A stretch of 64,000 nt of DNA, taken from the NCBI GenBank assembly GCA_030390025.1, contig CM059431.1, positions 125,738,001 to 125,802,000 on the forward strand, given 5' to 3'. The position numbers and the translations under genes were made by a program. The DNA is from Squalus acanthias (taxonomy: Eukaryota). A model generated the notes under the pieces. The model was given only the letters and a program-made list of their open reading frames with translations, was not told the origin of the DNA and made no database searches. Numbering within the stretch: the first letter of the stretch is position 1; every line of letters begins with the position of its first letter. This document shows, piece by piece, positions 9,388 to 58,356 of the stretch.

Positions 9388-12300
9388 ATGGCTGACCATG
9401 GGAGAGAGTGTGCACCAAAGTTTTTGGATGCTGCACTGGAAGTATTGGTGGAGGAAATGGAACGGAGGATAGATGTCCAATATTCACAGTGGGGCAGGAG
9501 GCCATCCAGGCACACAATGAGAAGGCAGTGGTAACAGATAGCCGTGGAGGTCAATGCCAGGAGTTTAGCCACAAGGACCTGGATGCAGTGCTGCAAGAAG
9601 TATAATGACCTCACATGAGTGGTCAAGGTCAGTGAATGCCTCATCAAATGCAATATCCTACCAACTGCACCACTAGCCTCAGCCACTGCTCAATTTACCA
9701 CACCCCAATCAATCACCTACCAACCATCTCTATCAATCAGGACTCATACCTAACATTCATATGCTTCACTTCATCCTCACACACTTAGCACTGTTGCAAG
9801 CCTCACACCCACATCTCATAGCTTGCACACACTGCCAGCTATTCTACCATGACAGCCACATCATCCAAACATATTTCATAACACACACTGACACACTTCC
9901 CTTTCTCTTGCAGGAGAAGGTAGTGCACAAACAGGAACTAACCGGAGGGTGAGAGGCACACCTGCATGATCTAACCTCCATGGACGAGATGCTGCTGGCC
10001 ATTATAGGAAAGGCCATTGCTGAGGCCGTGGTCACCGGCAGGGCTGAATCAATTGAAGATGACGGTATCCTCATACCTAATCCTCCTCCTCACATCCCAC
10101 TTCCTCCTCATCCCACAATATTTTCTGACTTACAAGCTGCAGATGGTGTAAGCATGCACTTCTCACTTTCTCCTCTCCCCTCACCATAACCTAACCCTTG
10201 TGCCTTTTTCCTTTCAGATACCCAAGAACTGCAACCTGCAGTGGAGGAAGACCAAGAAGAGAGTGATGATGAAGACACATCGTCAGTCGATTTCACAGAC
10301 ACCAGCTCAGATACTGACACTGCACTTATCTTAGAGGATAGCATAGAGGCGGGATCTGCATGTGGTGAGACATCGGGCACAAGTGCGCTAGGCAGGGGGC
10401 AAGGACAGCACAGGTGCCAGCTCGCCAGAGGGCGAGATCGCACACGAGTTCTGCTGCAGAGGACTCAGATGAGGACTTTGATGGTCCAGGCTACAGAAAA
10501 AGGCTGATGGGTGTACACACCAAAATATTTGGTGCTTTGGGAAGCCTGCCAGAAAGCCTGCATTCAATGTCAAGGAGCATGTATGAGTCCGGCACCAACT
10601 TGGCACTGGGCTTTGCGCAGAGTTTTGAGCCCACCCTTTCCAGCATGGAACTTGTGGCCAACTGCATCAACACACTTGTGGAACCAACCACGATGCAGTG
10701 TCTGATGGGCAAAGACTCAGCTTCCATTGAAGCACAAGCAACAGCCACCCAACGCTCAGACCGCTGCCATCATGACTCTGGATACCAGTGTTCAAAGGGG
10801 CTTCCAAGGTGTCACAGCAGTCGAGCAATCTATCCTCCAACAGATTACTAGGATTGCTGAGGCTCTGCCCCAGGGGAGTGGCAGTGGCTCCATGGAGCAC
10901 AAACTTGCTGTTGCCTGTCAGCCAGCCAGCCGAGACTGCTGTCATCTATGCCGAGATGGTGCAGTCCAAAGCCGAGCCTTCCAGGCCCAGAGCTCCTGTA
11001 AAATTCGCAATTATCGCGATTCGAAATAACGAGATAATGCAGATTCGTTTCATCTGTTTTATTTCAACGAAATGCTGTCATGATTAAACAGGACACAGAA
11101 GCCTGTAAAATGGCCACCGCGCCTCGTGGCAGAAGCTTCCAGAATTTTCAGTGGGCAGACAAGATGGCGTTCGAATAAACATTTCAGTATAAGATTGGTT
11201 AATACGCAGCAAACACTGATAAAGACAGGATGCAACCTGTCTGCATTCGACACAATAGCAAGAGATAAGTGCTGGAATCATTTTCCATGCACAAGTAAGG
11301 ACCATTGTACTGGGCCATCGAAGGCCCATCCAGATACATCAATACGCAAATTCCCCACGGCTCTACAATGAGAGAGCCATTCTCGGGTGATTAAGTCAGT
11401 ATTCGAGGAGGCCCCAAAACCAGTCAGGGAGACTCCTAGCCGGTTCGACAATGGGGAAAACATTAACGGATAGTTGGCCAGTTTAAGGTGCTACCGAAAC
11501 GCATTAAAGGAAAGAATCGCCCCATGCTGGGAGTTTTGTGCACCAGTATTACACAAAGGACAAACATCAAGATTTGAGCGGGAGATAAGGGAACACAGCA
11601 CTATAACTATAGTGAACAAATGTCCATCGGGGGGCTTATTATCTCTGCTGACTCTTGACTCGGGCTGAACTCTTGACTGTTTTATCTCGCTGATGACTGC
11701 TGAACTTTTATTCTCCTATTCTGATCCTCGGGTATCGCTCTGCTGGATGAGCAGCCTTCTGTTTTTCTCTGGAGTCTGTTGACTACGAGACAAGATGAGA
11801 CGAGAAGAAGAGGAGAAGAATTCACGTACCGCCACGATCAGTAAACCCCGACCGCGCCCGAAAATACAAGAAAGAACTGCAGCGAAACGAGCCGAGTGCC
11901 TTACTTTAAAATTCTCCGAAGTATCACGAGTGGTGAGCATGTTTCCCGATGCTACAAATCTAGATTAGTGTAGGTATTGATAGGGGAGGGTCGTTTTATT
12001 AAGGATAAATATAATGTGTTCCCCTTTTTACGATGTGCCGTGCGTTCCTCATTACCCTAGACCAAGTTTTATGAATGTATGTATACTTGTACTGTCATTA
12101 ATTTGTGCCTATGACATGTACTTCATGATTTTGGACGTTATGCAATAAAGATTTCCATTTCGTACTATTCAACTGGGTCTATTTGAGTTTTCTCTGCATT
12201 ACTGCTCTCGCACCTAAGTCCAGTGTTAGTACCGTAAGGGCGAGTGGGTCGAACCACTCACAGGTGCTTATTGCAACAAGGCTGGCCGGAGACTAGAGCA

Positions 12301-12470
12301 AGCAATAGTATTAGGCAACGAAGGCCTAACCCCGCACAAGCACCTACGACCGAACCCCTTACACTCCTCGAAGCCATTCTCCAAGGCCATCTGCAATCTC
12401 CTGCACTGAAATTCACCAGCCTTCCACCAGCCATGCTGCAGCCGCTGGGGTAGCACTTCGCAGGAGCACT
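9388..12470 (+). pseudogene. Harbinger Myb/SANT-like gene remnant, interrupted by a solo LTR
   Basis: Begins MADHGRECAPKFLDAALEVLVEE and includes W..C.KKYNDL. GT/AG introns near 9628-9912 and 10065-10217, followed by an acidic exon. Confidence 0.65.
10997..12363 (+). mobile_element. Solo LTR, family B
   Basis: TGTAAAATTCGCAAT...CCCCTTACA with TSD CTCC on both sides; similar to the LTRs of 54406-62928. Confidence 0.92.
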
Positions 12471-17997: not shown

Positions 17998-19598
17998 TGT
18001 AGAATTCGCAATATATCGCGATTTGATTAATAAGGAGAAAACACAAAGTTTCGTTCAAACAGCTTTTATTTCAGCAGAATGCTGGCAGGTTTAAATTGGA
18101 CACAAGCAGCCTGTAAAATGGCCGCCGCACCTCGTGACAGAACATTCTAGACTTTTCAACAGGCAGACAAGATGGCGTTCCATTAAACATTTGTGCAAGA
18201 TCGATAACGATTCAGCACAGTGAAGATAATACACGAGACATTATGGGTTTGCAGTATAAACATAGATACTGGAATCGGTCTCCCAGGTACAAAGGAAAGC
18301 CATTGTACCGAGTAATCAAGGGCCCATCCAAAGGACATTAATATGTAAACTCCCAACGACTCTACGATGAGAGAGCCGTTAGCAGGTAGTTATACATGAC
18401 ACTTGGAAGCCCCAAACCCCTCCAGGGAGAACACCGACCGATTTAACAATGGGAGAAATATTAACAGGTACTCAAACATTCATGAGTAGCCCCGAAACCC
18501 ATTAAGAACGGAGATCACCCATACAAGACATTTGGGCGCCAAACCCTAAACAAAAGAATGGACATTATAGTTGGGCGGGAAACGGAAGATTTTTGCACTA
18601 TAATTGCAGGCCCCAAACCGTCCATTCGCTCTCTTGCCTCTTGCCTCGTGCTCTTGTTCGTGCTCCTGCGTTCGCTCGCTTGCTCCTGTGTTTTATCCGG
18701 TCGATTCGTAACCTCGTGGCTGCTCCTGTGTACTCGTAGTTGGGCTTCTGCGTGCCTGTTGCCTCTTCTGAAAAGACTGTTGAACTTTCTGATCCGTACG
18801 GATCTACCTCGTGTCGCGAAACGAAGACCTATGTTGGTAACTGGCAGCGGAACCAAAGGCCCGAGATGAGATGAGATGAGAGGAGAAGAGAAGAAGACCA
18901 TATCCATCGCCACGGTCAGTAAATCCCGACCGCGCCTGTAGGTCGATCAGCCAAGTTTCTCCTTGCCAGGAAGACTTCTTTGAACTTTAAAGGACAGACC
19001 CCGGAAGATTCTCCTTTGAGATATTGACTAATCTGTGAAACCCACCAACAGAGGTCTTCATCACAGCAGACGGTCCAGCCTACTAGCCGAAGCAGCAGAA
19101 GCAAGTAAACAAGTGGGACCAGGAGATCTCCTGACCGACACGTGGGTGCTGCGGTGAAAAACATCCGATCAGCTATTCGGAATTTCTCCGAGTTATCACG
19201 AGTGGTGAGCATGAGTCTCGAGATCCTACGAAGCTAGTTTAGGATAGATATTGATAGGGGAGGGTTTAAAGATTAAGGATATTTGTAATGTGTGCCCCTA
19301 TTTACGTTGTGCCGTTCGTTCCTCGTTTCCCTAAGATCGACTATATAACTGTTTGTAAGATTGTACTGTCATTAATCTGTGCTTATGACATGTATTTCAT
19401 AATTTTAAGTATCATGCAATAAAGTTTTTCCATTTCGTACCATTCAAACCAAGTCTACATGAGTTTTATCTCCATTACTGCTCTCGCATCTAAGTCCAGT
19501 GTCTAGAACCGTAAGGGAGAGTGATTCGAACCACTCACAGGTGTGTCTAGTGTTCCCAGACAGGCTGGAGACCAGAACAGGCAACCAGGCCTAGACCC
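17998..19598 (+). repeat. Outer provirus 5' LTR, first 1601 bp
   Basis: Identical by eye to 41650-43250 (offset 23652). TATAAT at 18599, donor GT at 19205, AATAAA at 19418. Confidence 0.95.
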
Positions 19599-21195
19599 TG
19601 TAAGGGATTCTCTCCTGACCCTGCGTGTCTCGTAGCCTGTGAGATTCACGCGGCTCTGTGCAGCCTGTATGTCAGTGCGGGTCTAGGCCTGGTCTCCAGC
19701 CAGTCTGGGAACACTAGACACCCCTGTGAGTGGTTCGAATCACTCTCCCTTACGGTTCTAGACACTGGACTTAGATGCGAGAGCAGTAATGGAGATAAAA
19801 CTCATGTAGACTTGGTTTGAACGGTACGAAATGGAAAATCTTTATTGCATGATACTTAAAATTATGAAATACATGTCATATGCACAGATTAATGACAGTA
19901 CAATCTTACAAACGGTTATAATCACTCTTAGGGAAACGAGGAACGACCAGCACAACGTAAATAGGGCACACATTACAAATATCCTTAATCTTTAAACCCT
20001 CCCCTATCAATATCTATCCTAAAACTAGCTTCGTAGGATCTCGAGACTCATGCTCACCACTCGTAATAACTCGGAGAAATCCCGAATAGCTGATCGGATG
20101 TTTTTCACCGCAGCACCCACGTGTTGGTCAGGAGATCTCCTGGTCCCACTTGTTTACTGCTTCTGCTGCTCGGTCAGTCGGCTGGACCGTCCGCTGTAGT
20201 GAAGACCTCTGTTGGTTGGATACAAGGTATGGTGGAGCACCGTTGTCAATATCGCTGATACGATGTGTTTGCACAGTCCAGTTATCGTCGATGCAATATG
20301 TCTTGTTAAAGAAGAAAACTTCCTGTCGAGAAGACTTGGCTGATCGACCTACAGGCGCGGTCGGAATCTACTGACCGTGGCGATGGATAAGGTCTTCTTC
20401 TCTTCTCCTCTCATCTCATCTCATCTCATCTCATCCCGGGCCTTCGGTTCCGCTGCCAGCTACCAACATAGGTCTTTGCAACAGTCTTTTACACAGGAGC
20501 AGCCACGATGATAACAGCAACAAGCGGCAAGAGTCAAGAACACGAGGCAAGAGCAAGAGCAAGAGGCCAGAGAGAGAATGGACGGTTTGGGGCCTGCAAT
20601 TATAGTGCACAGTTCTTCCGTTTCCCGCCCAACTACAATGTCCATTCTTTTGTTTAAGGTTTGGCGCCCAAAATGTCCTGTATGGGTGATCTCTGTCCTT
20701 AATGGGTTTCGGGGCTACTCCTGAATGTTTGAGTACCTGTTAATATTTCTCCCATTGTTAAATCGGTCGGTGTTCCCCCTGGAGGGGTTTGGGGCTTCCA
20801 AGTGTCCTGTATAACTACCTGCTAACGGCTCTCTCATCGTAGAGCCGTTGGGAGTTTACATATTAATGTCCTTTGGATGGGCCCTTGATGGCTTTCCTTT
20901 GTACCTGGGAGACCGATTCCAGTATCGATGTTTATACTGTAAACCCATAATGTCCTGTGTATTGTCTTCACTGTGCTGAATCGTTATCGATCTTGCAAGA
21001 ATGTTTATTGGAACGCCATCTTGTCTGCCTGCTGAAAAGTCTAGAATGTTCTGTCACGCGGTGCGGCGGCCATTTTACAGGCTGCTTGTGTCCAATTTAA
21101 ACCTGACAGCATTCCGCTGAAATAAAAGCTGTTTTGAACGAAACTTTGTGTTTTCTCCTTATTAAAATGAAATCGCGATAATTGCGAATTCTACA
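19599..21195 (-). repeat. Inner provirus 3' LTR
   Basis: Preceded on the minus strand by AACAGGAGGGAC; direct repeat of 30574-32170. Confidence 0.95.
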
Positions 21196-21619
21196 GTCCC
21201 TCCTGTTGATGCGAATAACTCCGCTTATCGTATCAAAAATCTCAGTGGTGAGCAATCTTATCTCGATTTCACTCCGAATCCAGTAAATTAATCCCATAAA
21301 TTTTAACTTCACTAGGGTCTCTGTGTCGTCCTCATTTCCCAAGAAAAGTCACATTTTATATCACCGTAGGCATCATTTGCCCTTAAACTTACACCACTTG
21401 TTTTCCTTCCCGGCGTAACCAGGCCGATACCTCACGCATCACCTGTATATTTGTCTTTTATTCAAGGGAAGGAAAAACAAAACCCAAAAACCAAACAATC
21501 AACACCATCACCAAAATAAACAAATCCCGACTCTTAAACATGTCGAGTTTCCAACGTATTTACAATGAGTACAAACTTCCGCGGCGCACGTGGCGAGCGG
21601 GAGTGACGCCATTTTCCCA

Positions 21620-23970
21620 TTACACTGCGCTCTCATCGTGCACGCGCACGTAACGTTCTCGCCACTCTCCCGTGTTCTCATGCTTGGTGAGGCGCTTGTC
21701 TCTTTTACAATGTATGAACAAAAGGTATACTACAATAAACACTTGACAGACGACTAAAATGTGGGAGGCTATTCTGACCCATGAGGGCACTTCAATATTC
21801 GTGAACAGATTCCACCACGGTGGAACCACTATGTCCAAAATGTCTGTACCTATCTCGACAGTTTTCTGCTCTAACGTATAAAAATGCTTCTGTGAAACCG
21901 CGACGGCTTTCAGAAGTTTGGTTAAATGCTCAGGGAGAGGGGGAATGAGGTACCCAAAATGTGCGACAAATCGCTGCAAGTCGGTAAAATTCTCTTTTAC
22001 TGTGAGATGAACAGTGGATGGTTCAGGGATTGGGATAATTCGCTGTTGTGCTACTTGAACTTCAGCCCTGGGTTTAAAACAGAAACTGCTGTCACTCACC
22101 GGACACCGGCTACGGTTTCCATGCTGGTAGTGTTGCGCTGCAGTGGTAACACAATATGTTCCACCCCCGATGTATGCTACCTGCGGAGGCACATGATCTT
22201 GTGCCATTGCCTCCATGGTGCAATTCATGGACTTGGCGCCAGCCGTTCTGAACCCGCACTGTGGTGTTAAAAAGGCATTCAAGTGCTGGGGGCACAGTAT
22301 TATGTGTGCTCCCCTGCCACGACAACCAGAGAGATCTGTACCTGTCATCGTTTGCTCCCAGCGGATGACGTAAGGTGGAACCGCTGCATAACGAATGTGG
22401 GCTCCCCCCTGAATGACACCAATGTTCTCTACCCGATACACCGGGGCGGGCTTTGCTGTGTTGCCCAAAACCGGCATGCGTAATACTATTCCCATAATAG
22501 TATGGTTTGAACGTCCGCAGTCCACGGGGACTGGGTAAGCTTCTGAAGCTAGCCTGAGCTGGCACGGACTTAATGCGTTCTGAAAAGGGTGGAGCGCCCG
22601 CAGGTGTTTGTTACTTATCCAGGACGGGACCAAACCTTGTTTTAAATCCTCCAAATTACTGCGGCCCTCGCCCAGTAACCACGCCCCGTAAAGCACGCAC
22701 ACCTCGTTCTGCGCAGCTTGATCGGATGCATTCCGATCTTCCCTAATCAGGGCATTTACCGTACGCGCATGTTTCTCCAGCTCTGCTATGATTTCCTTTA
22801 AGTGGAGTGTCATGGCTTGGTCCTCGTGCAGACCCGACCCTACCACTTTATTCTCATCTGTAAGAATATCCTTTAACTGTGTTTTTAAACCATTAATCTG
22901 GGTCTGCAGCTCCACACTGTCTAGAGCGTTGACCACAGATGTCCCTGTGTTAAAAGCAGTGAACGCATCGTTCACCAAACCCCTTCTTTGCCTCCCTACT
23001 TGGTCCAAAACTTCCTGCGGTGCGGTGTATAAACTTGTCTTATCAATTTCTGCAAAATCAAACTCGTAAAATTGCCTGAACATCTTGGTCAACAGGACCT
23101 GGTACAACTGTTCCGTCTTTTTGGGGCACCACTCTGGTAACCGTACCTCAGTGAGATTTAAAATCACCGAGGCCACCGCGTAATGTACCCCCTGAAATAG
23201 TATCTGGTCTGTGGGGACCAGTACCAAACCGTTCCCGGGTCCCTTACTAGTTTTAGGGCACCCTTCTTCCTCAGTTAGACTACCGGAATCGTGGGCGGGG
23301 CTTTGCGTGGGCGCGTAATGAGCTCAGTGGCATTTACTGGGATCGGAGAGTATGGGGCTCCGCACCCCCTGGTGCTCGCATCCCACCTCATCCCCTGTCC
23401 GTTATCCTGCCACTGGTTAATAAAGAATATGGAGATGCCTTTGGGGCAAACGTACTTTGACCCCCACATACAAACATAAATCCCCTCATCTGGTTCCCAC
23501 CATTTGTCCCAACAGACTTTCACTTGTCCATCTGTCCCCGTAATTGTCCGATGGGTATTATTACCCAGTCGCTCCCACTCAACCGAAGAGTTCCTCATAG
23601 TTTTGCTCAGCTTTCGCAGCCACCACCATCGGCTCAATGGGACATTCCCACTGCAGGTCAAACAAATCCGTTTGCCGACGGTGACGCTGATCCTGGGTGC
23701 GATGATCCGTACTTTGGGGCACATTAAAGAAGTCTCTTTGTAGGCGAACCCCGATGTGCTGGAATACTCCGTTGAGTTCGTTCCCAGCCATCCTGGCCAC
23801 CTTCCCTTGTGGAAATAGGTGCTGGTCCCTTCTGCCTTCCGTCTCCCGGTCCCATCCACCGCGATGGGGGCCGTGTCCCCGGAACATCCAAACACCACGA
23901 CATCCTTGGTGAGGCCCCGATAGGCCAATCCACATCCGATTGCCACGAGCAAAACTAGAAGTCGTTCCAT
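21620..23970 (-). pseudogene. env: env: signal peptide, Ig-like domain, RQRR furin site, F-protein-like fusion subunit, TM and tail; one frameshift near 23275
   Basis: ORFs 23275-23970 and 21620-23227 are read contiguously across this point in the outer copy. TM IASHILVVCQVFIVVYLLFIHC; YVRV motif in the tail. Confidence 0.9.
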
Positions 23971-24254
23971 CCTTCCTTGGTTCCTGTGATCAGATAGAAT
24001 GAGGTAGCCAGCCTCGCAAAAAGTCTCTGGCTTTTGTGAAGGGTGAGCGGGTCCCCTGACCTCGCCTCACGTAAACTTCAACGTTTGCTGAATAGACTTC
24101 CTCTAAACCTAGCCTTAAAACTCCCATCATTTTATCGTTTTCTGTTAAAAACACTACAAACTTAACCTTATTAAAACTACTTAAAACTTTAAACTAAAAC
24201 TTAAAACCTTAAACTAATAACTTTACAATGCCGCCCGTTCTCAGGGCGGCCCCT

Positions 24255-27200
24255 TTAAATCCTGAGAAGGCTGCTGCGAGCTCTTCCCGACGGTGGGAGG
24301 GCACTGACCCTTCCCTCTGATCTGCCGCAGCCTGTTGCTGCGCTGACCCTTTCCTCTGATCTGCCGCAGCCTGTTACTGCTTCGATGTGGCCTGTCTCTA
24401 CCCGGGTTATCTTAACCTGAAACTTACGCCCTGGGGCAGCCTGTGGACCTGACCACATCTTCCTGGGCTGGGGTACTCTGCTTGACCTACGGGGAATTGC
24501 TATGGGCGGGGGCTCCGTGACGGACGGACCGGGTCCCGAGACCTTCAACGGGATGACCTGGGGTTCCATCACAGGCGCCAGCCCCGCCTCCGCTGACTCC
24601 GCCTCCCTAACCTCGGGGCTGGCAGTTCGGGGCCCCGCCCTGCTCGGCCCAGCAGGCGGCCCTTCACTCGCGAACTCTGCCTCCCCTGAGGACTGGACGT
24701 TCAAAGCGGGCGGCCACACCTCTGGGAACCACATAGCGGCTGGCCCGGCCTCCTCTAGCTCCTTCCTCCTGCTGTCGGGACCTGCAGCTTGTGTGTCCAC
24801 CCCGTATGGATCTCTACCTAGCGGCCCCAATCCTCCAGACCGTTCCTCTGAAACCACCCGTCATCATCACTATGCTCATCTGCACTATCCTCATCTGACC
24901 AGGGTACCCTGGGGTCCTCGTCATCTAACCCCCAACTCCAGAAAAACGCTGCATGATCGTCCGGGATGTCCCTTCCCCTGATGCAAGCTGCTACGCCTGC
25001 CGGTGTGCCTTGTGGTCCTACCTGGGGCTGTGTTTTCCCATTGGCGGGATTTACCCCTGTAGTTTTCCCTTGCGCACCCGGCTGGTACAGTTTACATTGG
25101 TTTATGTGGAACCACTTAGTGCGCCGAGGTACTTTTACGGCGTAAACCATGGGACTTGCCTTGTCTACAATGTTGTAGGGTCCCATATACAGTGGTTCCA
25201 GACTCCCTACTCTGGCGTAGTTTCTGACCATGACCTGGTCTCCTACTTCCCACTCCCGCGTTTTGCGGGGTTCCAGCAACAAGCGATTGCCCTGGTGCTG
25301 CCTTCCCATGTTCCCAGCCGCCTGCTCATAAACTTGCTTCAGGCGCTCCAAGAGAGTTTGGGCGAACTTGTCCCTGCTGATCTCTTGAAGCTGACCCTCA
25401 GTGAGCACCGGGGCTAGCACATGGGTGGGGGTTCGCATGAGCCTGCCGGTCATTACCTCGTGCGGGGAGTACCCCGTACTTTTTGACTGACTGGCCCGGA
25501 CCCCCATGAGGACTAAAGGCAGAACTTCCGCCCATTTTTGGGGCGAGTTCCTAGTCTCTTTCCTCAATTTCTCCTTCAGGGTCCGGTTCATACGTTCAAC
25601 AATCCCGGATGACTGGGGATTGTGTGCTACGTGCCACTTCCCTTCAATGCCCAAAAGCATGAGGGTGTTCTGCATCACCTGGCCGGTGAAATGACTCCCT
25701 TGGTCTGACTCCACGAAACGGGGGAGTCCCCACCGCGAGAACACTTCCCGGACCAAGATTTTTGCTGTACCCAGTGCCGTAGCTGTTCGACAAGGGAAGG
25801 CTTCCACCCACTTGGAAAACACATCCACCAGGACGAGGCAGTACTTATAACCTCCCTGGGTGGTGGGCAGGGGTCCTATATAGTCGATCTGTATCGACTG
25901 CCATGGTCCCTCTACCCTTCTTACGTGTCCCATGGGCACCTTCCTTTTCTGGGGGTCTGGGTTGTTTGCAGCGCACACAAGACAGTTTGCACAGAACTCG
26001 CGGACTTGTTCCCTGAGCCCTGGCCACCATCCCGCTTGCTCTACCCGTTGCCAGGTAACCTCGGGCCCGGGGTGCCCTGCCCCTGGTCCCTCGTGAGCCA
26101 ACTGGAGGAATTCCCTCCTGTGCTGCTGCGGCACAACCCACTGCTCCTCGCGGAACAGCATGCCTTCCTTAACTGAGAGGGTTGCCGTACTGTACGGACC
26201 TTCTACCTGCCTCCCCTCAGCAATCGTTTTTAGGACTGCTTTTAGGGCGGGATCCTGGGCTTGGACGGTCTTAAGGTCTAGGGGCAATGCTACCCTGGTG
26301 TTCCCGGTATTCCCGTCCCCACCTCGGACCGCTGCTATGGGTCCGGTTCTATAGGGGTTCCAGAAAGTACCGTCGCGGGCACCCTCCCTGGCTAGCGCAT
26401 CCGCCTGCCGGTTGCCCTCCCCACGGGGCTCTGTGGAGGAGTGAGCTTTCACCTTATGGATGAAAATCTCCCCTTCCTCCCCTACTGCTGCTGCTAAGAT
26501 CTTTTCCAGCAAGGGCTTTACCGTTAAAGGTCGCCCGTCCGCGGAGGTGTATCCACGGCGGGACCAAATGGCCAGGTATTCCGTACACGAATTGCAGGTG
26601 AACATACTGTCCGAGCAAATCGTGTATGGGGTTGGGAAAATGTCTGGGTGGGTTACCACGTACACCACGGCAGACAGCTCAGCCTGCTGCGCGCTCATGG
26701 TGCTAGGGAGCTTGATCGCCAGGGCAAGGTCTGCCGCAGGGTCATAAACTCCACACCCTGTGAGTCGCTCGCCAGCAGATACTGTGCTAGACCCATCAAC
26801 ATAAATCTCGCGCCCAGTGGGATGTATCCCGGCCCGTAAACCTATGTTGACGTCCCACACCCCCTCCACCGAACACCGGTGGGCTGTACCGGGGTATACC
26901 AAATTGGCCGCAAGCCTGGGCTCGCAAAGACCTTTTACTCTGATGTCCAACTGGGAGAGAAGAAGGGTCCAACGCGCAATGCGTGCGCTGCTTACGGTCC
27001 CGTCTTTAATCCTCCCATCCAGAAGCATCTTAGTTGGTGTGTGATGTGTGAGGAGAGTGATGGGAGAGAGCCCTGTGAAGATCGCTGATCTTTTCACAGC
27101 CCAATGCGTGGCTAAAAGGTGCCTTTCGCAATTGGAAAAACTTCTCTCCACATCCGTTAATACCCTGGATGAATAGACAACCGGCCTCAGCTTGCCGTGA

Positions 27201-28756
27201 CGCTCTTGGAGCAGCACGGCGCTTAAGCTGTCTCCGCTGGCAGCTACCTCCAGGAAAAACTCCTTCCCCCCATCTATGGCCCCTAAGGCTGGCGCGGTCT
27301 GCAGATCCCTTTTTAACTTCTCGAAGGCTGCTTGGCAGCCCTCGTCCCAAAGCCACTCTACTCCCTTATGGAGGAGTCGGAGGAGCGGCGCCGCTGTGGC
27401 CGCATAATCCTCGATAAAATCCCTGCAGTAACCGGTCAGTCCCAAGAAGGACCTCACACCCCTTACGTTGTTGGGAATCGGTAATTCTTGCACCGACTCC
27501 CTCCTTGCTTTGTCTATGGCTCTTTCCCCAGCGCGTAGGGTCAGTCCCAGGAATTTTACTTCCTGCTGACCGATACGTGCTTTCTTTGGGTTTACTTTAA
27601 AACCCTTTCTCGCTAACAGCTCCAATAACTCGTCCAGTAGTGGTCCGTGCTCCTCCCTTGAGTCCGTAAATAGGAGCAAATCATCCACATACTGTACTAT
27701 CTGATTGGGCTGACTAAACTCCTTTAAACTTCCTGCCATACACTGGTGAAAAATACTGGGGCTATTGTGGAAACCCTGTGGCAAGCAGTTCCACGTGTAC
27801 TGTTGCCCTTTAAACGTAAAGGCAAACTTGTACTGGTCCTCTCGCCGCAGCGGGATGGACCAAAAACCGTTCGAGATATCCAGCACCGTGAACGTGGTCG
27901 CGGACGCTGGGATGCTCCCTATTAGGTCAGCAACTGCTGCTACTGTGGGCGCGCAGGCGGGGATGTTACTGTTAAGGACTCTGTAGTCCACCGTGGCTCT
28001 CCACGAATTATCCGGCTTCCTAACCGGCCATAATGGGGAGTTCACGTGTGTGGCTATCGGCCTCAACACGCCCTGCTGCACCAAGGAAGACATTGCTGCC
28101 TCCATATCGGGTTCTGCTTCTTTGGGGAAGTTATACTGCTTTTGGGGTCGGGTCATGGGGTCCCCATCTACGCTGACCTCAAACCCGACCACCCTCCCAC
28201 AATCGTGCTTGTGGGTTGCAAACGCGTGCATATTATCTGTCACGTACGTTTGCATGTCCGTTGGGACATCTGCGACCATAAGCCTGAGGTCGTAGCCTCC
28301 GGATGGCTGTACGGTACACAGGACCCCTGTTTCTTCCTCCCCTTGAATTACCATTACCTCGCCTTTTTCACCTTTAGCCCCCCAGAGACAGTGATTTCTG
28401 AGGTCCACGAGGATCCCGTGTCCCGCTAGCAGATCGGACCCGAGAATACCTCTTCCACCCCCCTTTTGCCATGCCATCAGTATACACTTCCACTTAAGGC
28501 GAAGTGTCCCTAAACGAATGGATAGCGGGAGGGAAAACGTGCCAGCCTGTTCTTTCCCTGTGAACCCTGCTAGCGTGAATGGGACCTTGGTAGATAGCGG
28601 CGAGTCAAAAGGGTCATCTGTATGGATTATGGTGCAAGAAGCTCCCGTGTCCAACAAATAACTGCCCTTTTGTTTCTCTACCTCCATCTCCACCACAGGT
28701 CGCCTCCACGCATCATAGCTGAGCGGACACAGGTAGACGGGCTGTGCTGGTTCTAG
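24255..28756 (-). CDS. pol: pro-pol (PR, RT, tether, RNase H, IN) plus acidic/Pro-rich C-terminal extension (frameshift near 24835)
   Basis: LLDTGAS; LDISNGFW, LPQG, YVDD; YVDGSS/AQQAEL/SDS/GNRQAD; HHCC, QIDYIG/ESDQG/VERMN, GPY. The enzymatic part (24818-28756) is open. Confidence 0.95.
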
Positions 28757-30569
28757 TCATGGGGCACTATTAGACGGTCCTGCGGCACCTACGGGGCCGG
28801 TTGCGACCGCCACCTGTCCACGCGCATTCAAAACCATCTTGCGCATGACTCCTAACACTGCTTCGAGGTCTTCGGGAGAGGTGGGTGCCTTTGCTTCCTT
28901 AGCCGGGACAGGCGCCTGGGTTCGGACCGCGGGATTTTTATCCTTGGAATCCTTCCAAGGGTTCCTGCAGTGCTTGCGCCAGTGCCCTGTCTTCCCACAC
29001 CCGTAACAGGCATTACTTGCCTGTGGGGCGCGATTACCCTCCTGATGCCACTCTCTTTGAGTCGGGGCTGCGGGTCGTACCTCATGTACTCTTCCCTTAA
29101 AGGGACGTGTCGTCATACCCCTTATGTTACGGTAACCTAACGTGAGTCGATTCAAGACCGACTCTTCCGTAAGGTTGAGGTCATTGGGATCGAACCAGGC
29201 TTTTGCCTGCTCTCTAACGGCTGGTAAACTGTTGGCTATTATGCACCTAAGCCAATGAATTAAAGCGGCGCCTTCCACATCTTCGCGCTCGGGCGCACCT
29301 AGACAGCTGCGCTCATATACTGGCCACAGCCTGTCGGCAAAAACCTTCGGGGGTTCTCCCTCCATCTGCACTGTCTGTCCCACTCTAGCAAACGGACCTC
29401 CGTCGTTCGCTCCCACTACTTCTAGGACCTCATTTTTCAATTCCTCATAACTTTTATTACCCCTCTTGCTATCGCCTGAGAGACACTGAAGGACCGAGCT
29501 ATCTAAAGAGAACAGCAGCATTTTTGCTGTCTCCCCATCATCGCAGCCGTTGATGGCTGCGGCTTGCTCAACTTCCCTAAAATGTACGGAAGGGTCGTCT
29601 ATCTCGGTCAGCTTCCTTACGTGGTTTATCATGGCCCTCAGCTGATGTGAACTGTGAGGCAACACCAGCTGTCCGAGGAGATCCCCCGGTTCTTCCCCAC
29701 CGTTTCTGCTTGGGCCCCTTTTAATCCCCGTTACTGGATACAACGATCCCTTTTCTACCTCCTTTTCAACGGGCTCTTTTGCTTCTTCCGTTGCTTCCTC
29801 CCTAACCCAGGTTTCTGAATAGCTGGGTGGCGCGGAGGGCGCAGTGGCTACTACTTCTTCTGCTTTACTTGGTGGGGAATTTCTAAATCTCTCATTTACT
29901 AGCGGCTGGCGTGCCGACGGATTAATAAGGCACACCATGCCGTTCGCATTATTCACGGCCTTTTTGAGGCTCTCTATCTCTTTTTCGCAGGCGCTATGGT
30001 CGGCTCCCTGAAACTTATCCTCAAGGGCCAACTTATACGCCGACCTAACCCCCATTAAGCTCTCTTCTTGAGTTCTTATCTGGGCAGCTTGACGGTTACA
30101 TCTTTCCTTCATCCTACTCTCGTTTAATTTTGCTTCAGTGATCTGGCACTCGAGATACTCTACCCTTGTTTTAAGGTAACTGGAGACTTCCTGGCTTTCC
30201 TGGCGTAACTCATTTAAACTCTTAATGAGCGCCTCCCCTCCAGAAACCTTCTCCTCCATTTCCTCCTCTAGACTGCTTGATTCGAGCGGTTAGCGCTGTA
30301 TTGGTCTGGTTTGAAATCTGAACCTGCCTTTTGTAGCACATAAGCCAGACTGCTTTCTCAACTGCCTTTTTATGCTCCTTACTATCCGTCCACCTTTCAG
30401 CTGCCTCTAGTGGGCTCTTATCCGCTAACAATTCGCTTATCCACTTTTTCGTTAGATTAACCTTTCCAAATACGTAATCCGCTATCTTTTCCTGCATCAC
30501 ATTTCGTACAGTCATTCCAAAATCTAACACACTACCCTCTCGCTGCCAGTGTCCTGCCGCGGTCGCCAT
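28757..30569 (-). pseudogene. gag: gag (coiled-coil N-terminus, PSAPPSY, capsid, CCHC knuckle); one frameshift near 30278
   Basis: ORFs 30222-30569 and 28757-30259; CYGCGKTGHWRKHC; VQMEGEPPKVFADRL. Confidence 0.92.
30551..30568 (-). promoter_or_regulatory. Primer-binding site, tRNA-Arg(UCG)
   Basis: TGGCGACCGCGGCAGGAC, 5 nt after the LTR, complementary to the recalled 3' end of vertebrate tRNA-Arg-TCG (GTCCTGCCGCGGTCG-CCA). Confidence 0.85.
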
Positions 30570-30573
30570 TTTC

Positions 30574-32170
30574 TGTAAGGGATTCTCTCCTGACCCTGCG
30601 TGTCTCGTAGCCTGTGAGATTCACGCGGCTCTGTGCAGCCTGTATGTCAGTGCGGGTCTAGGCCTGGTCTCCAGCCAGTCTGGGAACACTAGACACCCCT
30701 GTGAGTGGTTCGAATCACTCTCCCTTACGGTTCTAGACACTGGACTTAGATGCGAGAGCAGTAATGGAGATAAAACTCATGTAGACTTGGTTTGAACGGT
30801 ACGAAATGGAAAATCTTTATTGCATGATACTTAAAATTATGAAATACATGTCATATGCACAGATTAATGACAGTACAATCTTACAAACAGTTATAATCAC
30901 TCTTAGGGAAACGAGGAACGACCAGCACAACGTAAATAGGGCACACATTACAAATATCCTTAATCTTTAAACCCTCCCCTATCAATATCTATCCTAAAAC
31001 TAGCTTCGTAGGATCTCGAGACTCATGCTCACCACTCGTAATAACTCGGAGAAATCCCGAATAGCTGATCGGATGTTTTTCACCGCAGCACCCACGTGTT
31101 GGTCAGGAGATCTCCTGGTCCCACTTGTTTACTGCTTCTGCTGCTCGGTCAGTCGGCTGGACCGTCCGCTGTAGTGAAGACCTCTGTTGGTTGGATACAA
31201 GGTATGGTGGAGCACCGTTGTCAATATCGCTGATACGATGTGTTTGCACAGTCCAGTTATCATCGATGCAATATGTCTTGTTAAAGAAGAAAACTTCCTG
31301 TCGAGAAGACTTGGCTGATCGACCTACAGGCGCGGTCGGGATCTACTGACCGTGGCGATGGATAAGGTCTTCTTCTCTTCTCCTCTCATCTCATCTCATC
31401 TCATCTCATCCCGGGCCTTCGGTTCCGCTGCCAGCTACCAACATAGGTCTTTGCAACAGTCTTTTACACAGGAGCAGCCACGATGATAACAGCAACAAGC
31501 GGCAAGAGTCAAGAACACGAGGCAAGAACAAGAGCAAGAGGCAAGAGAGCGAATGGACGGTTTGGGCCTGCAATTATAGTGCACAGTTCTTCCGTTTCCC
31601 GCCCAACTACAATGTCCATTCTTTTGTTTAAGGTTTGGCGCCCAAAATGTCCTGTATGGGTGATCTCTGTCCTTAATGGGTTTCGGGGCTACTCCTGAAT
31701 GTTTGAGTACCTGTTAATATTTCTCCCATTGTTAAATCGGTCGGTGTTCCCCCTGGAGGGGTTTGGGGCTTCCAAGTGTCCTGTATAACTACCTGCTAAC
31801 GGCTCTCTCATCGTAGAGCCGTTGGGAGTTTACATATTAATGTCCTTTGGATGGGCCCTTGATGGCTTTCCTTTGTACCTGGGAGACCGATTCCAGTATC
31901 GATGTTTATACTGTAAACCCATAATGTCCTGTGTATTGTCTTCACTGTGCTGAATCGTTATCGATCTTGCAAGAATGTTTATTGGAACGCCATCTTGTCT
32001 GCCTGCTGAAAAGTCTAGAATGTTCTGTCACGCGGTGCGGCGGCCATTTTACAGGCTGCTTGTGTCCAATTTAAACCTGACAGCATTCCGCTGAAATAAA
32101 AGCTGTTTTGAACGAAACTTTGTGTTTTCTCCTTATTAAAAATGAAATCGCGATAATTGCGAATTCTACA
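30574..32170 (-). repeat. Inner provirus 5' LTR
   Basis: Adjacent to the PBS; about 8 differences from 19599-21195. Confidence 0.95.
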
Positions 32171-32174
32171 ACCC

Positions 32175-32251
32175 GCACTGACATACAGGCTGCACAGAGC
32201 CGCGTGAACCTCACAGGCTACGAGACACGCAGGGTCAGGGAATCCCTTACA
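32175..32251 (+). repeat. Outer provirus 5' LTR, displaced last 77 bp of U5
   Basis: Matches 43251-43327 and ends CCCTTACA. Confidence 0.95.
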
Positions 32252-32255
32252 GAAA

Positions 32256-34066
32256 ATGGCGACCGTGGCAGGACACTGGCAGCGAGAGGGTAGTGTGTTA
32301 GATTTTGGAATGACTGTACGAAATGTTATGCAGGAAAAGATAGCGGATTATGTGTTTGGAAAGGTTAACCTAACTAAGAAGTGGATAAGTGAATTGTTAG
32401 CGGATAAGAGCCCACTAGAGGCAGCTGAAAGGTGGACAGATAGTAAGGAACATAAAAAGACCGTTGAGAAAGCAGTCTGGCTTATGTGCTACAAAAGGCA
32501 GGTTCAGATTTCAAACCAGACCATTACAGCGCTAACAGCTCGAATCAGCCATTTAGAGGGAGAAATGGAGGAGAAGGTTTCTGGAGGGGAGGTGCTCATT
32601 AAGAATTTAAATGAGTTACACCAGGAAAGCCAGGAAGTCTCCAGTTACCTTAAAACAAGGATAGAGTATCTCGAGTGCCAGGTCACTGAAGCAAAATTGA
32701 ATGAGAGTAGGTTAAAGGAAAGATGTAACCGCCAAGCTGCCCAGATAAGAACTCAAGAAGAGAGCTTAATGGGGGTTAGGTCGGCGTATAAGTTGGCCCT
32801 TGAGGATAAGTTTCAGGGAGCCGACCATAGCGCCTGCCAAAGGAGATAGAGAGCCTCAAAAAGGCCGTGAATAATGCGAACGGCATGGTGTGCCTTATCA
32901 ATCCGTCGGCGCACCAGCCGCTAGTAAATGAGAGATTTAGAAATTCCCCACCAAGTAAAGCAGAAGAAGTAGTAGCCACTGCGCCCTCCGCGCCACCCAG
33001 CTATTCAGAAACCTGGGTTAGGGAGGAAGCAACGGAAGAAACAAAAGAGCCCATTGAAAAGGAAGTAGAAAAGGGATCGTTGTATCCAGTAACGGGTATT
33101 AAAAGGGGCCCAAGCAGAAACGGTGGGGAAGAACCGGGGGATCTCCTCGGACAGCTGGTGTTGCCTCACAGTTCACATCAGCTGAGAGCTATGATAAACC
33201 ACGTAAGGAAGCTGACCGAGATAGACGACCCTTCCGTACATTTCAGAGAAGTTGAGCAAGCCGCAGCCATTAACGGCTGCGATGATGGGGAGACAGCAAA
33301 AATGCTGCTGTTCTCATTAGACAGCTCGGTCCTTCAGTGTCTCTCAGGCGAGAGCAAGAGGGGAAACAAAAGTTATGAGGAATTGAAAAATGAGGTCCTA
33401 GAAGTAGTGGGGGCGAACGACGGAGGTCCGTTTGCTAGAGTGGGACAGACAGTGCAGATGGAGGGAGAACCCCCGAAGGTTTTTGCCGACAGGCTGTGGC
33501 CAGTATATGAGCGCAGCTGTCTAGGTGCGCCCGAGCGCGAAGATGTGGAAGGCGCCGCTCTAATTCATTGGCTTAGGTGCATAATAGCCAACAGTTTACC
33601 AGCCGTTAGAGAGCAGGCAAAAGCCTGGTTCGATCCCAATGACCTCAACCTTACGGAAGAGTCGGTCTTGAATCGACTCACGTTAGGTTACCGTAACATA
33701 AGGGGTATGACGACACGTCCCTTTAAGGGAAGAGTACATGAGGTACGACCCGCAGCCCCGGCTCAAAGAGAGTGGCATCAGGAGGGTAATCGCGCCCCAC
33801 AGGCAAGTAATGCCTGTTACGGGTGTGGGAAGACAGGGCACTGGCGCAAGCACTGCAGGAACCCTTGGAAGGATTCCAAGGATAAAAATCCCGCGGTCCG
33901 AGCCCAGGCGCCTGTCCCGGCTAAGGAAGCCAAGGCACCCACCCCTCCCGACGACCTCGAAGCAGTGTTAGGAGCCATGCGCAAGATGGTTTTGAATGCG
34001 CGTGGACAGGTGGCGGTCGCAACCGGCCCCGTAGGTGCCGCAGGACCGTCTAATAGTGCCCCATGA
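32256..34066 (+). pseudogene. gag: gag; one frameshift near 32840
   Basis: ORFs 32256-32849 and 32867-34066; near-identical to the inner gag. Confidence 0.92.
32257..32274 (+). promoter_or_regulatory. Primer-binding site, tRNA-Arg(UCG), one C>T change
   Basis: TGGCGACCGTGGCAGGAC. Confidence 0.85.
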
Positions 34067-41649: not shown

Positions 41650-43327
41650 TGTAGAATTCGCAATATATCGCGATTTGATTAATAAGGAGAAAACACAAAG
41701 TTTCGTTCAAACAGCTTTTATTTCAGCAGAATGCTGGCAGGTTTAAATTGGACACAAGCAGCCTGTAAAATGGCCGCCGCACCTCGTGACAGAACATTCT
41801 AGACTTTTCAACAGGCAGACAAGATGGCGTTCCATTAAACATTTGTGCAAGATCGATAACGATTCAGCACAGTGAAGATAATACACGAGACATTATGGGT
41901 TTGCAGTATAAACATAGATACTGGAATCGGTCTCCCAGGTACAAAGGAAAGCCATTGTACCGAGTAATCAAGGGCCCATCCAAAGGACATTAATATGTAA
42001 ACTCCCAACGACTCTACGATGAGAGAGCCGTTAGCAGGTAGTTATACATGACACTTGGAAGCCCCAAACCCCTCCAGGGAGAACACCGACCGATTTAACA
42101 ATGGGAGAAATATTAACAGGTACTCAAACATTCATGAGTAGCCCCGAAACCCATTAAGAACGGAGATCACCCATACAAGACATTTGGGCGCCAAACCCTA
42201 AACAAAAGAATGGACATTATAGTTGGGCGGGAAACGGAAGATTTTTGCACTATAATTGCAGGCCCCAAACCGTCCATTCGCTCTCTTGCCTCTTGCCTCG
42301 TGCTCTTGTTCGTGCTCCTGCGTTCGCTCGCTTGCTCCTGTGTTTTATCCGGTCGATTCGTAACCTCGTGGCTGCTCCTGTGTACTCGTAGTTGGGCTTC
42401 TGCGTGCCTGTTGCCTCTTCTGAAAAGACTGTTGAACTTTCTGATCCGTACGGATCTACCTCGTGTCGCGAAACGAAGACCTATGTTGGTAACTGGCAGC
42501 GGAACCAAAGGCCCGAGATGAGATGAGATGAGAGGAGAAGAGAAGAAGACCATATCCATCGCCACGGTCAGTAAATCCCGACCGCGCCTGTAGGTCGATC
42601 AGCCAAGTTTCTCCTTGCCAGGAAGACTTCTTTGAACTTTAAAGGACAGACCCCGGAAGATTCTCCTTTGAGATATTGACTAATCTGTGAAACCCACCAA
42701 CAGAGGTCTTCATCACAGCAGACGGTCCAGCCTACTAGCCGAAGCAGCAGAAGCAAGTAAACAAGTGGGACCAGGAGATCTCCTGACCGACACGTGGGTG
42801 CTGCGGTGAAAAACATCCGATCAGCTATTCGGAATTTCTCCGAGTTATCACGAGTGGTGAGCATGAGTCTCGAGATCCTACGAAGCTAGTTTAGGATAGA
42901 TATTGATAGGGGAGGGTTTAAAGATTAAGGATATTTGTAATGTGTGCCCCTATTTACGTTGTGCCGTTCGTTCCTCGTTTCCCTAAGATCGACTATATAA
43001 CTGTTTGTAAGATTGTACTGTCATTAATCTGTGCTTATGACATGTATTTCATAATTTTAAGTATCATGCAATAAAGTTTTTCCATTTCGTACCATTCAAA
43101 CCAAGTCTACATGAGTTTTATCTCCATTACTGCTCTCGCATCTAAGTCCAGTGTCTAGAACCGTAAGGGAGAGTGATTCGAACCACTCACAGGTGTGTCT
43201 AGTGTTCCCAGACAGGCTGGAGACCAGAACAGGCAACCAGGCCTAGACCCGCACTGACATACAGGCTGCACAGAGCCGCGTGAACCTCACAGGCTACGAG
43301 ACACGCAGGGTCAGGGAATCCCTTACA
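41650..43327 (+). repeat. Outer provirus 3' LTR (1678 bp)
   Basis: TGTAGAATTC...CCCTTACA followed by TSD GGTT. Confidence 0.96.
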
Positions 43328-54405: not shown

Positions 54406-54761
54406 TGTAAGGGGGCGTGTCTCAGACGGTGCTGGTGCGAGGTTAGGCCTTCGTTGCCTAATACTATTGCTTGCTCTGGTCTCCGGCCAGCCTTATTGCA
54501 ATAAGCACCTGTGAGTGGTTCGACCCACTCGCCCTTACGGTTCTAACACTGGACTTAGGTGCAGGGAGCAGTAATGCAGAGAAAAACTCAAATAGACCTG
54601 GTTGAATAGTACGAAATGGAAATCTTTATTGCATGGCATCGAAAATCATGAAATACATGTCATAGGCGCAAATCAATGATAGTACAAGTATACATGCATT
54701 CATAAAGCTTGGTCTGTGGAAATGGAGAACACACGGCACATCGTAGAAAGGGGAACACATT

Positions 54762-55653
54762 AGGGGAAAAATTCAGTCGCGCCCCGTTCGGGGCGCAAAT
54801 ATCATCCGGGCGCAAAAATTAGCGCCTGGCGCTAATTATCGCCACTGACTGGAAACGTCACTTTTAACGCCCCGGGAGGTGATTGGAGCGCTAAATCAGG
54901 CGCTTCACACCTGTCTTAAGGCGCAAAGGCCGAGGAGCGAGGCGCTAACTCAGAGCGCTGGCGAAGCTCATGTAATGTCAGTCAGCAATGGAACACACAC
55001 ACAATGGCACAGGCCAGTTCTTAAAGGGGATGGTTAATCTTGCTTTCCATCCACATCCTGTTCATTGCAGCCTTGAATCTCGGCCTGGAGAGACTTGCAC
55101 ATCAAATCTGCTGGAAAGAACAATGGAGAGTACCAGGCAAAGAGCTCAGAGTGCAGCCCCCACAGTCTCTGCTAAATTGATACAAGGAATGGCAAATCAA
55201 AATGAACCTGCAAAGTGCTGCTCAGTACCCAAAACTCCTTCACACAACGTTGAATCTCTCCAGAAGTCTCTCCCTCTCTCTCTCAGAATGCGTAGTTCAA
55301 AAATGGCACCAACAATAAAAGGCAGGAAGCGGTCACCTTTAAATAGCGCTCCCCCTTTCCCTTCATGACTGCAGAATGCTCCCCTCAACCTGTCGTTGCT
55401 AGCGTCAGGCGGTAAGGCAGGGGCGCCACTCAATATCCGCTCCAGGGCGATACCGGGGCGTTGCACACTCGAATGACGTGATGATCTGCCGGTGCAGGAG
55501 ATCGTGGCGGTAGTGTTTAGCGCCGCCGCAAAATGTCTAGTTAATTTCGCGAGCGGCACAAACATCTCCGCGCCCGGGCGCTGGATGCTTTGCGCCCCAT
55601 TAGCGCCCTCTTAAGGCGCTAACGGGAGGCGCAACCAACTGAATTTTTCCCCC
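54762..55653. mobile_element. Harbinger-derived MITE inserted in the 3' LTR
   Basis: TIRs (A/G)GGGGAAAAATTCAGT, TSD ATT; absent from the sister LTR (GAACACATTATATC near 61590). Confidence 0.88.
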
Positions 55654-57307
55654 ATTATATCTTAACCTTATTAAAACACCCTCCCTTAATAATACCTACA
55701 CTACGTCTAGATTTGTAGGATCGTAAAACATGCTCACCACTCGTTTAATTTCGGAGATTTTAAAGTGAGGCACTCGGCTCGTTTCACTGCAGCACCTGAC
55801 TGTCACGTGTTTGGAAGGGTCTCTGCACCCCACTTGTTTACTTTCGCTGCTGTCATGAAAAGTCGATGGACCCAAACCGGATCGTGCAGTAACCCGTAGA
55901 ATTCAAAGATGAGTTCTGTATTTATATTTTCGGGCGCGGTCGGGGTTTACTGACCGTGGCGGCACGTGGAATTTCTTCTCGTCTTCTTCTCGTCTTCTTC
56001 TCGTCTCGTCTCCTCAGGCCTCCGGGTCCAGACACCATTTACCGACACTCGGGATGGTGTACCCTTTTACTTGCCCTTGTCGGGGCGGCTCGTACCGATT
56101 GAGCTCCACCCAACACTCGAATAACCGACCAGTACGGCTAAGAGTCAAGAGTCAACAAAGTCCAGAGAGAAAATCAAGAGCCCACAAGTCAAGCGAGTTC
56201 ATGAAGAGGCAAGCGAATAAGAGTTCAGCAGTCAGCATCGAGATAAGAGCCAGCTGGGAGAATAAGAGACCGATGGACATTTGTTCTCTATAGTTATAGT
56301 GATGTGTCCCCTTATCTCCCACTCAAATCTTAATGTTTGCCCTTTGTGTAATATTGGCGCTCAAAACTCCCAGCTTGGGGCGGTTATCTTCCTTAACGGG
56401 TTTCGGTAGCACCTGAAACAGGCCAACTATCCGTTAATGTTTTCCCCATTGTTGAACCAGCCAGGATGTGTATGAATTGTCTCCCTGACTGGTTTTGGGC
56501 CCCCCCCCCCAATACTTGCTTAATCACCCGTCGATGTCTCTCTCATTGTAGAGCCGGGGGGGTATTTGTGTATTGATGTGTCTGGATGGGCCTTCGATTG
56601 CCCAGTACAATGGTCCTTACTGTGCATAGGAAAACGATTCCAGCACTTATATCTTTGCTATTGTTCCAAATGCAAACAGGTTGCATCCTGTCTTTATCAG
56701 TGTTTACCGAGTATGATCCAATCTTATACTGAATGTATATTCGACGCCATCTTGTCTGCCCACTGTGTTTCTGGAAGCTTCTGCCACGATGCGCGGTGGC
56801 CATTTTACAGGCTTCTGTGTCCTTTATTATCAGGACAGCATTTCGTTTAATAAAACTGATCAAACGAATCTGCTTTTATCTTGTTATTTTTGAATCGCGA
56901 TAATTGCGAAACTTTACAGTCCCTCCTGTTGATGCGAATAACTCCGCTTATCGTATCAATTAAAATGCTGGTGAGCAAAATTATCCCGATTCTCCACATC
57001 CAAACACTCCGGTAATTAAACTATCTATGGCCTCCATGCAGTCCTCATTTCCCAGAGAAAATACATTGTCTAACTTGGACAAATCGTAGGCAGCATTGCC
57101 TTTAAACTTACACTGCGTATACGCCTTCCAGGTGCAAAAGGCCGATGTCTCTCGCACCACCTGTATATGCATGTTTTATTATAAAAGGAAAATAATCAAA
57201 CCAACTATTTTAAAAATACAAAAATTCCAAACTTAGTTACACATACTCATAACTAACAACAATTACAAAACACACATGGAAAAATGGAGCGGCGTCATCC
57301 TGGCTGT

Positions 57308-58125: not shown

Positions 58126-58356
58126 ATCTCCTGGTTCCTGTGATCAGATAAAATGATGTAGCCAGCCTCCCAAGAGTCTCTGGCTTTTGTGAAGGGTGAG
58201 CGGGTCCCTTGACCTCGTCTCACGTATAAAGACATGTATGCTGGATAGACTTTAACTATTCCTATCACTAACTCCCATCATTTTACCATTTACTTTTAAA
58301 ATTAAACTACAAAGTTACCAAACTTAAGAAACTATAAACTTAAACTTATCCTAAAC

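Follow-up and report, generated by a model that had tools for sequence, protein, structure and literature searches.

The window analysed here, by which we mean the whole stretch of 64,000 nucleotides of Squalus acanthias DNA, contains three proviruses (A, B and C), which were delimited by self-comparison. The original prediction had spoken of three proviruses sharing one arrangement of the gag start. Three copies are indeed present, yet A and B are 97% identical and form one family, with C as a second, so the window offers two families and not three independent cases of the overlap described below.

17998–19598 (plus strand), 5′ LTR of B up to the insertion of A, with the U5 arm of the stem and a mini-ORF (19414)
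19599–32170 (minus strand), provirus A, sitting in the 5′ LTR of B, target duplication ACCC
32171–32251 (plus strand), second part of the 5′ LTR of B, resuming beyond the inserted A
41650–43327 (plus strand), 3′ LTR of B, from LTR self-comparison
54406–62928 (minus strand), provirus C, second family, target duplication CTGT, gag region ~ 74% identical to that of B

The target duplication of B is GGTT. The LTRs of A are identical at 1590 of 1596 positions and those of B are identical across the parts compared; A and B are young. The insertion is nested (window positions 17998–43327), with A lying reversed within U5 of the 5′ LTR of B and putting 12.6 kb between the two arms of a predicted RNA stem of B. 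The proviruses are of retrovirus type, with LTRs with TG...CA ends, 4-bp target duplications (A, B and C), a primer-binding site (PBS) and a purine tract before the 3′ LTR. A domain search identified protease, reverse transcriptase, two RNase H-type domains and integrase in the pol of A and B; we did not find pol enzyme domains in C. When read by eye, env has a signal peptide and a membrane anchor, and it gave no match to Pfam. Gag has a long coiled coil and one CCHC knuckle, which was recognized as zf-CCHC in the gag of C (E = 0.0003) and in a related protein, P0001. Fold searches with a partial Gag model returned no match at E ≤ 0.001 and only weak capsid hits. The gag frame is broken in all three copies, near codon 100 in A, near codon 197 in B and by a stop at codon 420 in C.

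In each copy gag terminates at a TGA with the start of pol next in frame (34064 on the plus strand; 28759 and 59439 on the minus strand), and the junction reads TGA CTA G in A and B and TGA CTG G in C. TGA-CTA is a readthrough signal, and the in-frame layout suggests stop-codon readthrough. C also carries a 359-codon open frame (58357–59436, minus strand) in which the start of pol is joined to a stretch resembling a coiled coil and to a tail like the one that follows integrase. Its 3′ LTR exceeds its 5′ LTR by ~ 830 nt, the extra sequence lying between splice donor and poly(A) signal (55000–55860 region). Elsewhere in the window are two more LTRs with no PBS behind them (1–953 and 10997–12363, plus strand), one per family and the first cut by the window edge, and an unrelated frame for a DDE_Tnp_4 (Harbinger-type) transposase (3725–4705, minus strand).

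The junction between LTR and gag is built from the following features.

32252–32256 (plus strand), 5-nt spacer GAAAA of B, its last A being the A of the ATG
32256–32258 (plus strand), PBS-overlapping ATG of B, in frame with gag
32257–32274 (plus strand), 18-nt PBS of B, Arg-type by likeness
32328–32330 (plus strand), Met25 of B gag, at the second ATG and likely the main start
30551–30569 (minus strand), ATG and PBS of A by motif match, ATG at 30569
30495–30497 (minus strand), Met25 ATG of A, at the 3′ end of the predicted stem
61218–61236 (minus strand), ATG and PBS of C, ATG at 61236 and Met25 at 61162–61164

As originally predicted, the gag ATG overlaps the PBS in frame in all three proviruses (two families). 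The motif matched with no mismatches at 30553–30573 (minus strand), 32252–32272 (plus strand) and 61220–61240 (minus strand), and none of 100 shuffles contained any match. In all three copies the LTR end ...CCCTTACA (at 32251, 30574 and 61241) is followed by GAAAA and then by TGG, the LTR ends having been fixed through the 3′ LTR copies and the 4-bp target duplications. The 5-nt LTR–PBS spacer thus holds for every copy, as does the good start context, with A at −3 and G at +4 (AAAATGG). A spacer of about 2 nt is usual. Two details of the prediction needed correction: MATAAG had been given for all copies, and the copy at 32247 encodes MATVAG; and the PBS, read as Gag residues 1–6, has as its 18th base the first base of codon 7.

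No tRNA genes were found in the window. PMC11905727 assigns to tRNA-Arg a PBS that would encode the skate sequence MATTKG; by manual count, 14 of 18 bases are common to that site and the window PBS. An Arg/Trp ambiguity in PBS assignment is noted in PMC4724089. tRNA calls made at 15 of 110 motif matches, which lay in microbial and phage loci, gave Asp, Asn or no assignment; these have no bearing on the host tRNA.

A core motif beginning at the second Met was seen in 12 of 30 related proteins. Nine of the 12 carry MAT exactly 24 codons before Met25, one starts at the core Met and two start in between. Relatives and window copies together make up three lineages; the named Gag relatives that we looked up (10 of the hits) come from skate, catshark and horn shark, which makes a cartilaginous fish the likely host, and the PBS start is kept at the 24-codon distance in skate, catshark and unnamed relatives. 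These counts come from proteins and not from DNA, and are biased by the preference of gene callers for the longest frame. Judged from these sequences, the overlap of gag ATG and PBS, 24 codons before Met25, is a lineage trait. Residues 1–6 follow the primer tRNA (MATAAG versus MATTKG), since MATTKG is the translation of the PBS that PMC11905727 assigns to tRNA-Arg. In one relative (P0026, residues 20–26), L-H-M stands before ATAAG where the window has L-Q-K-M, which by back-translation would imply a 2-nt LTR–PBS spacer that still ends in A.

In the reading of the original prediction, Gag is initiated on unspliced RNA mainly at the PBS AUG, and binding of tRNA-Arg or of a 3′ fragment of it would switch the RNA from translation to packaging. 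Such a start is favored by the strong context, by a frame that is open in all three copies and by the occurrence, in 9 of 12 relatives, of the same start at 24 codons upstream of Met25. The CCA end of the tRNA would pair with the UG of the AUG by the very definition of a PBS, and 3′-tRNA fragments repress PBS-bearing mouse elements according to 10.64898/2026.01.22.698655. We nevertheless consider this reading unlikely. The count among relatives suffers from the bias just described, 3 of the 12 are annotated without the PBS start, a diverged 18-codon stretch would be free of stops by chance in ~ 42–53% of cases, and residues 1–6 follow the tRNA. The Met25 context is GTGATGC or GTTATGC, and that of the PBS AUG in A and B is the stronger (AAAATGG). 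A start-stop in another frame (ATG TGA) lies across the Met25 ATG of A (30495–30502, minus strand) and C (61162–61169, minus strand), reading AAATGTGATG; B has lost the stop.

We then compared coding constraint before and after Met25. Against its own PBS start the original prediction had set initiation at a downstream Met with first codons free of coding constraint, and the result lies half-way, with a synonymous excess in codons 25–78 and no significant one in codons 7–24. Between A and C and with a transition-matched null, P was 0.15 for codons 7–24, ≤ 0.002 for each of codons 25–42, 43–60 and 61–78, and 0.06 for codons 79–96; with an unmatched null, codons 7–24 reached P = 0.047. The first of these values counts against the PBS AUG as main start. 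In favor of that start, pN/pS in codons 7–24 is 0.35–0.41 (0.41 for A versus C) as against ~ 0.8 in the other two frames of the same codons; in codons 25–60 it is 0.17. Synonymous divergence is 0.52 in codons 7–24 and 0.94 in codons 25–60, a low early value that would be expected if the RNA itself were constrained. Differences by codon position are 4/5/6 in codons 7–24 versus 9/4/21 later, a contrast not significant on its own (Fisher P = 0.22). At the protein level, distant lineages match at 0–3 of 18 residues in codons 7–24 and 8–9 of 18 in codons 25–42, and the window copies match skate at 6 of 18 and 13 of 18, respectively; in the catshark/ENA group the block 7–24 is conserved like the later ones (12–14 of 18). 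The confidence of the Gag structure model is below 50 for residues 1–15. Taken by substitution pattern, coding constraint is clear from Met25 onward.

The flat codon-position pattern and the low protein identity in codons 7–24 would also be expected if the ATG were a by-product of an A placed before the obligatory TGG and were hardly used, with Gag made from Met25 by internal entry or from another transcript start and an RNA stem setting the 72-nt distance. One skate protein (P0024) is annotated from Met25, in line with this, and the stem predicted below would account for the fixed length. The frame and its openness are kept, though, in three lineages that share 0–6 of 18 residues there, and the A before TGG seems to have been kept even with the shorter spacer that P0026 implies. 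We hold a by-product to be a shade more doubtful than a main start at the PBS.

A folding prediction suggests what the bases between PBS and Met25 may do. In both families, bases +16 to +73, or the 57 nt that follow the PBS start, are predicted to pair with the 5′ part of U5, with most pair probabilities > 0.8.

30735–30810 (minus strand), 5′ arm of the predicted stem of A, in U5, beginning ~ 6 nt after the mini-ORF stop
30497–30554 (minus strand), 3′ arm of the predicted stem of A, ending at the Met25 ATG
32271–32328 (plus strand), 3′ arm of the predicted stem of B, codons 6–25, placed by identity to A, its U5 partner lying beyond the inserted A
61386–61468 (minus strand), mini-ORF and U5 stem arm of C, mini-ORF at 61460–61468

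The stem duplex amounts to −48.1 and −48.5 kcal/mol in the two families. None of 2000 shuffled queries was as good, and in scans of the entire proviruses (2470 and 1661 windows) no other window paired better than U5. Swapping the partners between families weakened the duplex by 5–7 kcal/mol (−41 and −43). The 15 leader differences between the families preserve pairing better than chance: when as many substitutions of like type were placed at random, the observed energy was reached in 7 and 8 of 3000 trials. Formal covariation was not significant with two families, as 3 of 44 pairs change on both sides and 66 of 500 shuffles reach that. It was limited to these two because the scans yielded no DNA of relatives: none was found by pol in viral contigs, and scans with PBS patterns returned 120, 51 and 38 loci with no Gag match and one weak integrase match among the 209. 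By energy the whole 322-nt region ranks 23rd of 72 windows, and z is about −2.1 to −2.3.

When the PBS was forced open in silico, the predicted stem over codons 7–24 remained. The PBS AUG itself is predicted to be mostly unpaired (0.76 and 0.64), a point in favor of its use as main start. The 3′ end of the stem is the A of the Met25 AUG, which places Met25 at the stem base and not beyond it; over the 50 nt that follow, the predicted unpaired fraction is 0.44 (A) and 0.28 (C). The claim of the original prediction that there is no leader between LTR and gag was not supported. A has at least 460 nt of LTR with six AUGs from splice donor to PBS (ten AUGs in C), and the sequence that follows the PBS is predicted to supply one arm of the U5–leader stem and to act as a structural leader. 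We also considered the stem as a mask of the 5′ poly(A) site; the predictions do not support this, as 3′ LTR contexts are about equally paired (0.40, 0.29 and a confounded 0.03 versus 0.28 and 0.24).

Upstream of the stem, the LTR contains a short ORF and a splice donor.

30817–30825 (minus strand), mini-ORF of A, overlapping the AATAAA poly(A) signal at 30816–30821
31027–31035 (minus strand), splice donor GTG/GTGAGC of the A 5′ LTR, GT at 31032–31031, upstream of the poly(A) signal
23968–24000 (minus strand), env splice acceptor, AG at 23985–23984, env ATG 13 nt into the exon

The mini-ORF (Met-Gln-stop, AUG-CAA-UAA) is found at the poly(A) site in 8 of 8 LTRs, and its stop lies 5–6 nt before the predicted stem in A and C. 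The overlap with the poly(A) signal alone could explain part of its conservation. The frame that ends on the mini-ORF stop is open for 46–54 codons in 8 of 8 LTRs (P = 0.016 for A and 0.041 for C), so that several upstream AUGs terminate there; these are 3 of 5 or 5 of 11 of the AUGs between donor and mini-ORF stop (7 of 8 LTRs). The A LTR has 15 AUGs upstream of the donor and 4 more from donor to mini-ORF. A hydrophobic frame (30817–30948, minus strand, in A) extends over 43–44 codons in A and C when counted from the first ATG. In all eight LTRs it is open as far as the stop at the poly(A) signal, even though its middle part is read in another frame in A and B; it is possibly translated as a peptide, or possibly acts as a funnel to the mini-ORF stop.

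Four sequencing runs provided eight joints and no transcript start or end sites on A. One of the joints links 31033 to 23983 on the minus strand with GT-AG ends. This env joint is represented by one contig, with 23 nt on its short side, from a run whose RNA origin is a guess. Scanning of six LTRs gave no second GGTRAG-type site besides this donor in any of them. Were the joint typical, the PBS would be absent from env mRNA, as it is with the R-region donor of foamy viruses, and genome-only sequence would comprise U5, PBS and gag. The original prediction had placed packaging signals in R/U5 or inside gag, and U5 and gag fit this if the single env splice seen is the normal one. In RSV, env shares the gag start. 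An env sharing the PBS ATG was rejected here, because env carries a separate ATG and the one env joint seen bypasses the PBS.

The LTR end and the first spacer base form a possible weak acceptor (TTACAG/AAAATGG) right before the PBS AUG. If the LTR donor were joined to it, the resulting spliced gag mRNA would lack the AUGs upstream, the poly(A) signal of the 5′ LTR and the U5 arm of the stem, the PBS AUG would lie 3 nt past the joint, and translation and packaging would take place on different RNAs. This would explain the 5-nt spacer, whose AG-making G is kept in 3 of 3 copies, as well as the strong context and open frame, and it would employ the one GGTRAG-type donor of the LTRs, which is used in one env joint. 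The pyrimidine tract is weak, however (7, 8 and 10 of 16, versus 12 of 16 at the env acceptor), the L-H-M of P0026 would back-translate to a 2-nt spacer with no AG, and the conserved Met25 would be left unexplained. We did not detect a joint to an acceptor at the LTR end among the eight joints listed, in contigs that can show presence only. A spliced gag mRNA appears quite improbable.

Our preferred reading, which we hold tentatively and at somewhat less than even confidence, is that Gag starts mainly at Met25 through a ribosomal shunt, with the PBS AUG as a secondary start in the same frame. Ribosomes would translate the mini-ORF and stop 5–6 nt before the stem. They would then shunt across U5 and PBS without melting them, bypassing the PBS AUG in the loop of the long predicted U5–leader stem, and reinitiate at Met25 at the stem base, as in prototype foamy virus (PFV) and CaMV. 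A scanning ribosome, by contrast, would have to pass 6–10 AUGs after the donor and to melt the stem before using the PBS AUG as main start. As any A before the obligatory TGG creates an ATG, selection would keep the PBS ATG open and in frame, since starts there would yield Gag with 24 additional residues rather than nothing. Against a shunt we count the better context of the PBS AUG in A and B, a frame open in three very divergent lineages, a landing stretch that is predicted to be partly paired, the position of Met25 at the stem base, and the many AUGs upstream of the mini-ORF, whose 5′-proximal position is presumed. It may be, although we think it rather unlikely, that one retrovirus lineage of sharks and rays makes two Gag forms, a long one whose first six residues are written by the tRNA and a short one via the shunt, with binding of primer or tRNA fragment shifting their ratio.

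If the preferred reading is true, the leader logic of foamy viruses, with the donor in R, a short ORF followed by a stem and the Gag AUG at the base of that stem, is also present in a shark retrovirus lineage whose Gag has a zinc finger, which bears on the form of the ancestral retroviral leader. Primer site, structural leader and open Gag frame within 75 bases would make a compact test case for the division of one RNA between translation and packaging, and database Gag proteins starting with MATAAG or MATTKG may carry a wrong or minor annotated start. A PBS inside GAG (Ty1), a U5–leader stem (HIV-1) and a shunt with a donor in R (foamy viruses) are already known. A literature search, mostly outside subscription papers, found no description of a PBS that forms the Gag AUG of a retrovirus, or of such a leader.

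Snakehead retrovirus (SnRV) uses an Arg primer and has a coiled-coil Gag and an env start upstream of gag; in the window copies, env starts at a separate ATG, with a signal peptide, downstream of the LTR donor. SnRV and its shark ERV kin are likewise a fish or shark retrovirus lineage, and SnRV differs in the noncoding region between PBS and Gag ORF (PMC12193657, PMC4422223). The part of the Lokiretrovirus supplement that was searched makes no mention of PBS or primer. Downstream of its PBS, HIV-1 has a long leader that includes the donor and the packaging signal. In its extended PBS stem, U5 likewise pairs 3′ of the PBS and affects the initiation of reverse transcription (PMC1865047), whereas in the window copies the stretch predicted to pair doubles as an open Gag frame and terminates at an AUG. 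Ty1 of Saccharomyces cerevisiae (PMC4974528) similarly has its PBS in the GAG frame and packaging signals in the 5′ end including GAG, but it is a copia-type element without env, and its bipartite PBS lies inside the ORF and does not supply the start codon.

Parallels also exist with shunting leaders. In CaMV and RTBV (PMC5902531), a short ORF stops before a stable basal helix (7–8 bases in RTBV/RTSV, 5–6 here), and the bypass leaves the central structure free for packaging. Their short ORF is 5′-proximal, their landing site is UA-rich and unstructured whereas the landing stretch here is predicted to be partly paired, and their PBS comes after the landing site whereas here it lies inside the loop. 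The shunt leader of PFV, as described in PMC2761275 and PMC5035957, differs in its tRNA-Lys primer, in the lack of a Cys-His finger where the window copies have a CCHC knuckle, and in that no in-frame AUG is noted in its PBS in the portions available; here, gag and pol are in frame across a TGA and the mini-ORF overlaps the poly(A) signal. PFV resembles the window copies in a splice donor within the LTR, which in PFV lies in the R region and here before the poly(A) signal with one contig joint, in a leader with several short ORFs and a long hairpin (predicted here) enclosing U5 and PBS, in a short ORF that ends just before the stem, in a Gag AUG near the 3′ side of the stem, and in the distance from U5 to Gag (~ 100 nt, versus 77 nt to Met25). 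The layout of mini-ORF, predicted stem and Met25 matches the short-ORF-plus-stem configuration of PFV and CaMV, and by analogy with these viruses it would support shunting.
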